From: Octopus vulgaris
Taxonomy: Eukaryota
DNA length: 64,000 nucleotides
Direction of reading: 5' to 3'
Assembly: GCA_951406725.2 (NCBI GenBank)
Contig: OX597818.1
Location: 106,826,001 to 106,890,000, forward strand
Shown: one piece after another, positions 52,741-57,219 of the stretch
Layout of the letters: each line of letters opens with the position of its first letter
Position numbering within the stretch: position 1 is the first letter of the stretch
The notes under the pieces: generated by a model
The model's database searches: none
What the model was told of the DNA's origin: nothing
Seen by the model: the letters and a program-made list of their open reading frames with translations, nothing else
Program-made: the position numbers and the translations under genes

Positions 52741-55700
52741 TCATATAAGCCAAGACAATTGTGGCTGATAGTGCTGTTGGCGCATCTGATCACCTTCAAA
52801 GTAATTGAATTCAAGTTAAATTCATCTACTTTAAGTCCCACTGAAATCTTTTAGGTTAGACCATTGTTAGTATGTCTCCATGAGTAACCCTACCTGATGT
52901 TAATATTCTTGATAGCAATGCTCTTGGAATCATAGGAAAATGCAAAGAAGTTCTGTGACCATTTTAGCAAAGAAGTTCTGTGACCATTTTATGTCAATGT
53001 AATCATGGGGAGTCAATATACATTTGGAAAATATTTAACAGATTGTATTAAAGTAATAGGGCTGACTATTAGCAAATTAAAATCCTTCCTGGTTAAACTC
53101 TGACATGGCTGCATTCCAATGATTGAAACCTGTAACAGAATAAAAGAATAAAAGCTTATTTATTCTCATATTCATAAACATCTACATCTTCATTCATATA
53201 TTCAACTTGAAATCACAGGGGAGGACAACCATCACAGTATGAAGCTGACTGCTGAACGAGATTTTAGCATAAGTATGTTATTGTAGTTACTTTTTTCACA
53301 AAATTATTCACTCACACACACACACACACACACACACACACACTCATGTGCACATACATGTCTGAGCGTGTGTGTGTGTGTATATCTAAACACTAATTTT
53401 TTAAAAATTATAAATCTATAGATGTATATATATATATATATATATATATATATATGTATATATATGCTTGTATGTAAATCTTTTTGCAAATCTATGGTGA
53501 ACAATAGAATTATTGATCTGTCAAAAATAATTGCTATCTTGACTACTAATAGATCACTTATTGATTAATTACAAATAGCAATGAGTGCTGGGGCTGGGGG
53601 AGATAGTACTCCTCATCCTTTTCGTTTGGTGTAAGATTCTAAATTTGCCAAACAGACTTTTTCTCAAAGCTTGAAATAAAATTCACTTCAAACCATTAGA
53701 AAATCATAAATAGTCAGCTACATTCTCTTACAATCTGCTACAACAACAAACAATAACTACTACTACTACTACTACTACTACTACTACTACTACTACTACT
53801 TTCTATCTGCCTGTCTCTCTATGTATTTCTTTACCACTTTACCTAAATTTTTTCTTAACCCTTTTAATGTGGAAAGCAGATAGGTTCACTCAAAATTTTA
53901 TTACTTTTAACTTCAGAAAGCAGGATTTACCCCATGGCCTTGAAAAAAAAAAAACTTCTATGTTTGCTAAAGAAGCTAAGATACCTCAGAGACACTATAT
54001 TTTCTTAAAATTTTTTTCCCACATATTTCATCAAATATTTATTTATAGAGCAGGTGTTAAATAATTCTAGTTGTGGATAAGAAGACCAAACCTACAAGAG
54101 ATACTGAAGAAATTTTCCAGAGAAAAAATTATCTAGTTTTTGGAATAGTTAACATATTATAAGAATGACTACTAAACTTAATTATGCAGGGAAAGGGTTA
54201 AGAATCCCATCTGCAAATACATTTCATTTCACTTCTATGATTACTACAATATTTAATTTCTGTTAGTTCATTGCAAATTTCGTTTTTAATACATATCTGG
54301 TTGATTTATAAATCAAAGTCAAATGGATTTAAATTAATATTCTGCTGAGGTTAGCTTTGCTTATCATCGTTTTGGGGTTGATAAAATATGTACCAGTTGA
54401 GCACCCCAAAAATGATGGCCTTGTGCCATGGTGTTCAAAATTTGTTTTGTAAATAAACAGTAAAATTCACATATGGACTCATTTCAGTTCTGCTGATGAA
54501 GGTATCATGTGTCCATATACTGATAAAAATGTCTGAGTATCAGAGACAGAATTATGGCCAGAGAAGACAAAAAACATATTTATTTATCTTAATAAGCACA
54601 TTCATTATAGTTTCAAGTATCTCTTTTTTTTTTGTTTTTGTTTTTAGTTTTATTGGTAAATGGTTACACCATTGCTCCAGATGTAACCCCTTTTTCAGCA
54701 TCACTGAACTCTAATGTCTGTTCCAGTAAATAACAACAATTTTCAGGGACAATGATTTGATGACAGAAAAAGAGGTGAAAGGGGTTATGAATACAGCAAT
54801 TCACCCCACTTGTGATGGAAAGAGAACAACTCACATAGTGAGTTGTACTCTTTCTATAGAGAAAGGGTCCCTCTTCCAATATGTGCAATTTATAGCAGTC
54901 TACCTTTGCATTACTTCCAGTAAGAAGCCTCATGTTCATTAGCCTTGCAGGAGATACACTGAATCAACAACATATATTTTTCATCTTGTTGATGGCATCG
55001 TCTATAAGATTACAATGTTATTTGAATTGCTTTTCGAGACTGTCTTTAACTGTTTTGATATTTTAGATCTGTGCATTAAGATTGCAGTTAATTATTTTCA
55101 CAGAATTTGCATTAGCATTGGTTATCTTTGATTTTGATAAGGGTTAAATTATCACTCAGTCACAATTGCTAATGGAGCATAAGTTCACACCAAGGATATT
55201 TGCTGTAAAACTTATCAAATACGATATCAACGTTACCCTCCTCATCATCTAAATTAATATCCTAGTTAATTCTGCAACAAATCGTGTTAATCACTCTCAA
55301 TCAAATTAAGATCAATAAGTTACTTTTAACACTTAAGCCACAACTGGGGAAATTATGGCTGAGACTGCGTGAAGCTGATCAGAAATATAGCCTGCTAAGC
55401 TGCTTGAAATAAACTTTATCTATTTGTCTGTCTGTCTGTCTGTCTATATCTGTCTAAACATACAAATGTATGCGTGTGCATGTATATGTGTGTGTGTGTG
55501 TGTGTCTGTGTGTACATATGTATATATATATATATATATATATATATATATATACATATATATATGTACATATGTATATATATATATATATATATATATA
55601 TATATATATATATACGGAGATGTACTCGCATAGCAAGTAATTTGATCTGAGATTGTGTGCTGAAACGAAAACAATTGCAGCGTGGAAGGTGTTTATAAGC

Positions 55701-55752
55701 CATTTAAGAAACACACAAAAGCCGTTCGATTCACTTCAACATTTAAGTTTAA

Positions 55753-55802
55753 TTTGTCAAAATATTTTCGTCGCTAAAATCCGCGACCTGTTCACTGACA
55801 AA
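55753..55802 (-). ncRNA. Identical G3-C8 hammerhead variant on the opposite strand
   Basis: Follows from the perfect palindrome centred on 55812. Confidence 0.65.
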
Positions 55803-55821
55803 AATCCGTGCAGCACGGATT

Positions 55822-55871
55822 TTTGTCAGTGAACAGGTCGCGGATTTTAGCGACGAAAATATTTTGACAAA
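55822..55871 (+). ncRNA. Minimal type I hammerhead variant with G3-C8 core pair
   Basis: Stem I UUUGUCA/UGACAAA; core GUGAACA 55829-55835; extra G; stem II GUCGC/GCGAC; GAAA 55855-55858; palindromic stem III AAUAUU; predicted cut after U55864. Confidence 0.65.
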
Positions 55872-55982
55872 TTAAACTTAAATGTTGAAGTGAATCGAAC
55901 GGCTTTTGTGTGTTTCTTAAATGGCTTATAAACACCTTCCACGCTGCAATTGTTATATATATATATATATATATATATATAT

Positions 55983-56334
55983 TTGAGTAGTTGAATGAAT
56001 TATCTTATTATGGATAATTCGAATTAACTGATACCTGGGTTGCAAATTCACATCAGAAAAAACACGGTTGATGTTACGTGCCTAGGGCATAGATTACGTG
56101 CTTTCGTGTGGAAATTTGTATGTTTATTTTAAAAATATAAATATATGAAAGAATGGAGCTGAACAACGAATTAACAAAATTCCTTTATTTTCGACATATG
56201 TTTCGAAGGCTGCATATTCCTAATTGCGAAGGAATAAATAATTAGGAATATGCAGCCTTCGAAACATATGTCGAAAATAAAGGAATTTTGTTAATTCGTC
56301 GTTCAGCTCCATTCTTTCATATATTTATATTTTT
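55983..56334. mobile_element. Fold-back PLE-type mini element B in (TA)n
   Basis: 95-bp arms 56131-56225 / 56240-56334 (1 mismatch), 14-nt loop, tail 55983-56130; carries the hammerhead 3' half GAAAC-AUAU-GUC (56261-56272). Confidence 0.85.
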
Positions 56335-56454
56335 TATATATATATATATATATATATATATATATATATATATATACATATATATATATATATATATATA
56401 TATATATATATATATATATATATATATATGTATATATATTATATATATATATAT

Positions 56455-56963
56455 ACATATAAATTTATATATAGAGGGCATTATACATACATGCCAGAAG
56501 GCATTATATATACATGCCAAACGCTAAGAGGGACAATTAGTCATTTCTACCAAAAATATTACTAATCCCACCGAATGCAATTTTTCAAAGTAAGACATTT
56601 AAAAAAATATAGACCTGTATCACAGTGATTTCATACTTACGTACTCATCAGCAGGCCTGAATGAGTACGTAAGTATGAAATCACTGTGATACAGGTCTAT
56701 ATTTTTTTAAATGTCTTACTTTGAAAAATTGCATTCGGTGGGATTAGTAATATTTTTGGTAGAAATGACTAATTGTCCCTCTTAGCGTTTGGCATGTATA
56801 TATAATGCCTTCTGGCATGTATGTATAATGCCCTCTATATATAAATTAATATGTTCAATAAGAAATAATTATTTTCGAAATTTTTTCTCTTATGAGGTTT
56901 TTACGCTATCTACCTGACAATTTCTTGTTAAGTTTTCCTTATTAAGTAGTTGTCCTTAATTGC
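56455..56963. mobile_element. Fold-back PLE-type mini element C in (TA)n
   Basis: Perfect 187-bp arms 56462-56648 / 56661-56847, 12-nt apex, tail 56855-56963. Confidence 0.88.
56611..56658 (-). ncRNA. Type I hammerhead ribozyme motif
   Basis: Minus strand AGGCCUG-CUGAUGA-GUAC-GUAA-GUAU-GAAA-UCACUGUGA-UA|CAGGUCU: 7-bp stem I, canonical core, GNRA-capped stem II, AUA cleavage triplet. Confidence 0.85.
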
Positions 56964-57219
56964 TATATATACATATATATATATACGAGTGTATGTATAT
57001 ATATGTATATATACATATATGTATACTTTACACACACACACACACACACACACACATATATGTATATGTATATATATATATGTCATGATTAGCAAAAAGT
57101 GAAACCGGTTGACAAACACAATATTCTTTCACTTATAAAAGATATTAAGAAATATATTGAAACTATGTAAACTGTGCATTTTCCTTCTTTTCTTTTGCAT
57201 TTATATAGTATTGTTCTAC

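Follow-up and report, generated by a model that had tools for sequence, protein, structure and literature searches.

What kind of element leaves long, almost perfect palindromes side by side in a simple-repeat tract, and how are the two arms of each made? Both questions are raised by a locus on contig OX597818.1 of the Octopus vulgaris genome (GenBank assembly GCA_951406725.2). The window analysed here is a stretch of 64,000 nucleotides (positions 106,826,001 to 106,890,000, forward strand), to whose own numbering all coordinates refer. An inverted-repeat scan revealed three fold-backs, A, B and C, within 55615-56963, flanked by TA runs. Our analysis indicates that they are very probably stubs derived from Penelope-like elements (PLEs), the result of three independent insertions of three PLE families, or of their non-autonomous pseudo-long-terminal-repeat (pLTR) derivatives, into one (TA)n tract. 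Published work is cited for the passages that bear on this locus.

The arms of A (142 bp) are identical and are separated by a single nucleotide, while those of B (95 bp, spacer 14 nt) differ at one pair (56165/56300). C has arms of 194 bp around a 12-nt spacer; their single mismatch is at pair 188, towards the AT-rich outer end, and the inner 187 bp have none. An earlier sequence-only reading had counted 0, 1 and 0 mismatches in the cores of three near-perfect fold-backs, and these counts are borne out (0/142, 1/95 and 0 in the 187-bp core of C). In 20 dinucleotide shuffles of 55400-57200 the longest perfect arm was 8-11 bp. Each arm pair is predicted to fold, as RNA, into a single long duplex. 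The long arm of each element continues as a one-sided 3' extension (Table 1); that of A appears to be part of the element, since it terminates at a TA run, and those of B and C also appear to be of element origin. The statements that TA runs alone separate the elements and that they lie within 1.35 kb hold if these extensions are counted with the elements and fail otherwise. Likewise, the description 'unrelated' is right for sequence (the best match among A, B and C is 16 nt, E 0.06, with no significant common sequence) and wrong for kind, as A, B and C share a hammerhead-bearing fold-back build and are objects of a single kind. A 23-bp tandem duplication (56473-56519 and 56790-56836) is present in both arms of C and is therefore older than the fold-back.

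The elements are identified by hammerhead ribozyme motifs, which the sequence-only reading had overlooked. Both arms of A hold a complete type I motif: stem I has 7 bp, G3 and C8 are exchanged in the core, one nucleotide is inserted, stem II has 5 bp with G10.1-C11.1 as its closing pair, and stem III is a palindrome of 6 nt. The two cores begin 34 nt apart. In the left-arm motif of C, stem I has 7 bp, stem II has 4 bp and a GNRA loop, and stem III is nearly palindromic; in the right arm the first core box is not intact at the junction, so that a complete motif is present in one arm only. Both A and C possess the core boxes, the 3-8 Watson-Crick pair and the three stems of a hammerhead. In B a 5'-truncated motif is found (Table 1). 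When orientation is taken from the hammerhead strand, all three elements are head-to-head and 5'-truncated.

The inverted-repeat scan covered the whole window without regard to ribozymes and with spacers of up to 60 nt, a limit which fold-backs with one long arm would escape. It gave nine inverted repeats, two of which (32799-32840 and 38395-38488) were excluded as simple repeats, leaving seven fold-backs (A-G; Table 1). E has 63-bp arms without mismatch (0/63), TA on both sides and a 67-nt one-sided tail that brings its full extent to 49402-49598. F is older (11/112 mismatches) and adjoins no (TA)8+ tract. D has 50-bp arms (3/50 mismatches), a 1-nt spacer, TA at its right and, at its left, a 65-nt run up to a (CA)n tract; its build is that of A-C. 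G is a 41-bp inverted repeat (4/41 mismatches, spacer 13 nt) without a TA flank, the initial 8 bases of which are repeated immediately past its right end. In F the right-arm hammerhead motif is complete (core at 15938) and the left core is decayed. E, too, has a complete right-arm motif (49470-49508), in which stem II is closed by U-U, a natural hammerhead variant (PMC3088659). Measured to their first nucleotide, the motifs start 3.5-17 nt from the fold-back centre in A, B and C, or 3.5-28 nt with E and F included, and they read outward.

Three descriptors of our own (strict, loose and B three-quarter) were composed after the motifs had been seen, so that the null values given for them are optimistic. 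The strict descriptor has four matches on both strands of the 64 kb, all inside fold-backs (A twice, C and 15938), against a null mean of 0.38 (60 shuffles); the loose descriptor has five, again all inside fold-backs (A twice, C, E and F; null 0.37). Four of the seven fold-backs are thus positive with the loose descriptor, compared with 0-3 of 2000 hairpins made from shuffled arms. The B three-quarter descriptor finds nothing in the window apart from A and B (null 0.014 per window). Scans for half motifs were noisy (palindromes of at least 8 nt, 10 against a null of 2.0; core-box pairs, 12 against 4.2), and those of the remaining half-motif matches that were inspected lay in no fold-back. A consensus has been published for the hammerheads of metazoan PLEs (PMC4209133, supplement); it matches F only, and does so exactly (core 15938); once a 3-8 swap is permitted, both arms of A match as well, with no matches in 500 shuffles. 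An Rfam search with a 63-nt stretch of C returned Hammerhead_HH9 as its sole match (16.6 bits, E 0.036, core in register; gathering score 52). An 18-nt motif of A was found at 28 loci in prokaryotic genomes, which is about chance level, with a best extension of 24 nt.

Insertions of PLEs are marked by strong 5' truncation, by a frequent adjoining inverted copy that is itself 5'-truncated and by a 30-40-bp tail at one end; their pLTRs carry hammerheads, and several clades prefer microsatellites, (TA)n being named for Naiads and a zinc-finger linker being hypothetically tied to the preference in Neptune (PMC8557442). Among inverted PLE arrangements the head-to-head form is the commonest and shows palindromes at the junction (PMC3846280). 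In Schistosoma, minimal hammerheads occur in opposite-strand pairs, 100-700 bp apart, which have been attributed to truncated PLEs (PMC4209133). Since A-C fit this anatomy, we class them as very probably PLE-derived stubs and not as autonomous PLEs. PLEs make up 6.83% of the O. vulgaris genome in 190 families, 31 of them recently active; word searches of the text and supplement of that study found no mention of hammerheads, hairpins or palindromes (PMC13282606). The giant squid genome has 235 hammerhead matches, which are not linked to PLEs in the pertinent passages (PMC6962438).

The closest likeness is to endonuclease-positive PLEs (Penelope/Poseidon, Neptune, Nematis and Hydra; PMC8557442, PMC3846280), which share with A-C a head-to-head inverted truncated copy, a one-sided 3' extension, a microsatellite target without discernible target duplication and a hammerhead near the 3' end. 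Unlike these, A-C have no open reading frame (ORF), each of the two copies is only a stub reaching to the ribozyme, and the extensions span 55-148 nt (55, 148 and ~110 nt in A, B and C) as opposed to 30-40 bp. With the minimal hammerheads of metazoan PLEs (PMC4209133), A-C have in common the type I topology, the palindromic stem III and the opposite-strand pairs; G10.1-C11.1 recurs in A and B, and the extra nucleotide after A9 in A. The motifs of A-C are closer together than the Schistosoma mansoni pairs, and the G3:C8 core of A contrasts with the reported natural covariant U3-A8. In C, stem III is longer and the closing pair is G-U; B is truncated. The Naiad PLEs of Octopus share the (TA)n preference and the inverted insertions, but lack canonical hammerheads and are long-inactive remnants in cephalopods (PMC8557442); A and C have full hammerhead motifs and look young, and a Naiad origin is considered unlikely. 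Non-LTR retrozymes (PMC7229834; bioRxiv 10.64898/2026.07.22.740005) are also short and non-coding, with a type I hammerhead, and are thought to derive from PLE pLTRs. They are head-to-tail tandem repeats, however, whereas A-C are single head-to-head pairs, and this origin was rejected because no head-to-tail hammerhead array appears in the Tandem Repeats Finder list.

Several observations weigh against a PLE origin, beginning with the optimistic nulls mentioned above. The motif of B is without its first core box, the loose descriptor is negative for B as well as for D (30590) and G (23992), and the latter two show no motif. C deviates from the published PLE consensus, having no extra nucleotide after A9 and a G-U pair at 10.1-11.1. 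No Rfam match reached the gathering level anywhere in the window. A search of 55400-57200 gave 111 weak matches, mostly to microRNA (miRNA) hairpins, with none to a hammerhead and none at the gathering level; the miRNA matches were discarded as generic hairpin resemblance. Rfam likewise returned no hammerhead for A alone, for E (49462-49530) or for F (15921-15990). The excess length of the one-sided extensions over the published tails is seen in all three elements, and their element origin is judged from single copies. Further copies of A, B or C are absent from the 64-kb window, and the three window motifs sought in the supplement of PMC8557442 were not found there. Finally, Pfam detected no PLE reverse transcriptase (RT) or GIY-YIG ORF in 221 of the 513 stop-free frames (210 of the 216 filtered frames, together with 11 shorter frames near the cluster). 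This makes an autonomous PLE less likely and leaves a PLE-derived origin unaffected, because pLTR stubs are not expected to carry an ORF. The two RVT_1 matches in the window (8360-8734 and 50036-50644) are, in our reading, of the long interspersed nuclear element (LINE) type.

The TA flanks and long inverted repeats would also suit palindromic miniature inverted-repeat transposable elements, or foldback DNA transposons of the Tc1/mariner or Harbinger type, inserting at TA. A Tc1/mariner-like element does lie within a TA tract of the window (~14942-15500), and palindromic Harbinger repeats are known in Xenopus (PMC5625713). Unlike the local element with its terminal inverted repeats, A-C as whole elements do not have matching termini, which the one-sided tails render unequal; hammerhead motifs, moreover, stand at the centres. 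A target duplication would be masked by the TA runs. We regard such an origin as highly improbable. The Harbinger repeats of X. tropicalis resemble A-C as self-folding repeats of ~200-400 bp that give double-stranded RNA (dsRNA) without a neighbour, but they are DNA transposons with a palindromic consensus (PMC5625713), whereas in A-C the palindrome would have been created as a retroelement inserted.

Near-perfect arms in TA-rich flanks that are difficult to assemble could equally betray an assembly or library artefact built from fold-back chimeric reads. The arms, however, end at element-internal points, the flanks are not inverted, the centres match ribozyme motifs across separate families, and the mismatch of B is C/T before G, as CpG decay predicts. 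Fold-backs in this window, moreover, decay: F, D and G carry 11/112, 3/50 and 4/41 mismatches, F and D being of the same build as A-C; this speaks against both an artefact of the library and homogenization as a general process. An artefact is hardly credible on these grounds. The sequence-only reading had offered homogenization of the arms as an alternative to recent insertion; the decayed fold-backs make it unnecessary, although for A-C themselves it remains a rival. A-C might thus be older insertions with arms kept identical by cruciform-driven gene conversion, or might be host hairpin-RNA loci under selection. Perfect palindromes with spacers of 1-14 nt are able to extrude cruciforms, and the weak miRNA-hairpin matches, all below gathering scores, could be counted on the same side. 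Set against this, an equally short-spaced fold-back has decayed (30590, 1-nt spacer, 3/50), and the miRNA matches reflect merely a generic hairpin; we consider conversion or host selection improbable. A-C together show two mismatches in 431 paired positions, which would correspond to an age of ~0.6 million years (0.08-2.3) if the arms were identical at insertion, if no conversion has occurred and if the octopus calibration quoted in PMC13282606 applies.

The idea that a GIY-YIG-type element had recently inserted into (TA)n gains support from the hammerhead motifs and the PLE-type anatomy, although Pfam found no GIY-YIG or PLE ORF in the frames scanned. A (TA)8+ tract adjoins five of the seven fold-backs (A, B, C, D and E), the probability being 0.07 for a random 250-bp segment. 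A hotspot beyond TA density, also proposed earlier, is not established: if all tracts count equally, at least three of five fold-backs share one tract with a probability of 0.014-0.019, which becomes 0.10 when tracts are weighted by present length, in a window that was chosen for the cluster. Most other repeats of the window had been described as heavily decayed, but A-C are not its only young ones: E (49402-49531) has perfect arms (0/63), and there are two young direct tandem duplications, at 28743-28880 (69 bp, 100%) and 37455-37956 (251 bp, 98%).

How the second arm arose is a separate matter. In A-C both 3' ends face TA runs and both 5' ends meet at the ribozyme motif. The arms span the predicted cleavage site; the template was therefore uncut at that ribozyme, and a template cleaved at the fold-back's own ribozyme is ruled out. 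The spacer of B and C belongs to the short arm, where it completes stem II in B and stem I with the core in C, and the tail belongs to the long arm. Private sequence on each arm favours two cDNAs primed from both target strands, while A and E are uninformative between two-strand priming and self-copying. We propose as the likeliest route, on an evenly balanced judgement, that two cDNAs were primed by both target strands from two different 3' start points, hence the single tail. A PLE protein with RT and GIY-YIG domains, encoded elsewhere, would nick the TA tract and use as template an RNA uncleaved at this ribozyme. Synthesis of both cDNAs would end close to the structured ribozyme or the pLTR 5' end, either at it or slightly upstream, and repair would join them, each element thereby consisting of two 5'-truncated copies of the element 3' end placed head-to-head. 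The products would be non-coding stubs.

The Anolis Poseidon protein PAc provides a biochemical parallel. In vitro it cleaves and extends both strands of AT-rich DNA; the tail is bounded by its two RT start sites, the template is uncleaved RNA, and the protein is a predicted dimer (PMC11167929). Together these properties would yield the anatomy of A-C. Initiation by PAc is homology-independent with a preferred cut at ATT, whereas here the target is (TA)n and the short-arm ends lean towards TA; the PAc paper makes no claim about fold-back stubs in the passages cited, and the link to A-C is ours (PMC11167929). The short-arm ends rank as TA-like at 0.05 in B, 0.019 in C, 0.058 in D, 0.21 in E and 0.85 in A (Fisher p 0.01, n=5). 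Such ends fit homology-guided priming or later trimming and speak against a fixed second start site; they count against our proposal.

Given a PLE origin, the second arm may instead have been made by snap-back, in which a small palindrome at the junction lets a single cDNA (or an antisense template) fold back and serve as its own template; the arms would then be unequal through early stopping or through later deletion into the TA tract. The formation of PLE inverted structures has been described as undefined (PMC8557442), and self-priming has been proposed for head-to-head PLE junctions with palindromes (PMC3846280). The 1-nt loop of A, the 8-bp junction palindrome of C and the TA-like short-arm ends of B, C and 30590 would agree with it, as would E, where the long arm contains the whole short-arm sequence over 49402-49598. 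A single self-copied cDNA, however, gives no private sequence on each arm, as seen in B and C, unless a further deletion or template switch is invoked; the force of this argument is limited in B, where the spacer is tied to the element solely by the 5-bp pairing of stem II. Snap-back is accordingly kept as a tentative and rather unlikely alternative to two-strand priming.

Table 1. Fold-backs of the window, with the parts of A, B and C, their hammerhead motifs and the repeat tracts around them
Feature	Positions	Strand	Remarks
A left arm	55670-55811	-	element sense reads from the centre outward
A right (short) arm	55813-55954	+	
A one-sided 3' extension (tail) of long arm	55615-55669	-	55 nt; stops at TA tract
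A left type I hammerhead motif	55753-55802	-	G3:C8-swapped core from 55795; N17 at 55760
A right type I hammerhead motif	55822-55871	+	stem I 7 bp; G3:C8 core at 55829; N17 at 55864
B left (long) arm	56131-56225	-	5'-truncated within hammerhead loop II
B right (short) arm	56240-56334	+	
B spacer	56226-56239	+	extra 5' sequence of short arm; carries stem II 5' strand
B one-sided 3' extension of long arm	55983-56130	-	148 nt
B 5'-truncated hammerhead motif	56228-56272	+	stem II 5 bp; GAAA box; 8-nt palindromic stem III; GUC triplet
C left (short) arm	56455-56648	-	includes 23-bp internal tandem duplication, mirrored in right arm
C right (long) arm	56661-56854	+	first core box broken at junction
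C spacer	56649-56660	-	extra 5' sequence of short arm: stem I 5' strand and core start; 8-bp junction palindrome
C one-sided 3' extension of long arm	56855-56963	+	~110 nt
C complete type I hammerhead motif	56611-56658	-	left arm; canonical core at 56651; N17 at 56618
(TA)n target tract left of A	55521-55614	.	
(TA)n interval between A and B	55955-55982	.	
(TA)n interval between B and C	56335-56455	.	
Right flank	56964-57056	.	imperfect (TA)n, then (CA)n
Fold-back D	30590-30690		
Fold-back E	49402-49531		
Fold-back F	15788-16032		
Fold-back G	23992-24086		

On both sides of the cluster lie candidate exons on the + strand (54747-54837, 55067-55142 and 58370-58464) with plausible splice signals, the last two phase-compatible by eye. 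Their peptides seem to us to recall EF-hand loops, which is unconfirmed by any search. Protein searches and Pfam did not confirm a gene, two protein matches being partial ones in several stretches that were set aside, and an intronic position of the cluster is unproven. ARAGORN found no transfer RNA genes in the window, and no homologue was found for the frame 6071-6415. The Tc1/mariner-like element at 14942-15500 is internally deleted, has terminal inverted repeats that are ~95% complementary including the flanking TA, and retains a DUF4817 helix-turn-helix fragment (Pfam E 4e-13). A second inverted structure, at 35722-36602 (207-bp arms, 84%, enclosing 467 nt), in our reading resembles a mariner-type DNA transposon that has decayed. 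Decayed LINE fragments, of the RTE type in our reading, occupy 50036-51367 and 8360-8734 on the - strand and 45738-46217 and 59362-60149 on the + strand; the two database sequences that match best come from contigs of 586 and 1506 bp deposited as bacterial, and probably represent animal contamination. Among the 120 matches listed for the LINE RT, a single one is eukaryotic, from Elysia chlorotica (63%). The longest microsatellite of the window by far is a 1.3-kb (ATAC)n array at 61838-63122.

The locus is ordinary transposon debris of a kind already known and explained by known PLE biology, and most likely it has no host function. Two features are possibly new: the G3:C8 core of A, and such stubs as a source of hyper-edited dsRNA in octopus. 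Variants of the PLE hammerhead were reportedly described by Lunse et al. in 2017, as cited in a review (PMC6765202). A natural G3:C8 core was not found in the literature searched, a provisional result as that work or the supplement of PMC4209133 may hold one; G3:C8 is on record as an engineered, partly active double mutant (PMC11167929) and, in one further paper, as a laboratory variant, and the natural 3-8 covariant reported is U3-A8 (PMC3088659, PMC4209133). Likewise, no description of octopus PLE fold-back stubs was found in the literature searches.

Transcripts of the stubs would fold into duplexes of 95-190 bp that sequester the ribozymes, and would be substrates for ADAR or Dicer. In O. 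bimaculoides hyper-editing is exceptional, and the share of loci forming near-perfect dsRNA, 4.4e-3, is exceptionally high (PMC5625713); octopus repeats were omitted from the repeat analysis of that study, in which palindromic Harbinger elements partly explain the dsRNA of the frog. In the present window, which was chosen for such arms, arms at least 99% identical cover 988 of 64,000 bp (1.5%). A wider scheme, doubtful when all of its parts are taken jointly, would have many PLE families of the octopus leave fold-back stubs (100-500 bp) as a matter of routine, through a dimeric RT-endonuclease and two cDNAs stopping at the ribozyme; the stubs would be the main source of near-perfect dsRNA and hyper-editing in O. 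bimaculoides, their junctions would record two-strand priming, and family A would possess a natural G3:C8 hammerhead.

Because stubs of this kind record both 5' stops and both 3' starts, a genome-wide tally could separate two-strand priming from snap-back. A natural G3:C8 core, if true, would broaden the descriptors by which hammerheads are recognized, and A-C, if transcribed, would give near-perfect dsRNA for editing enzymes.

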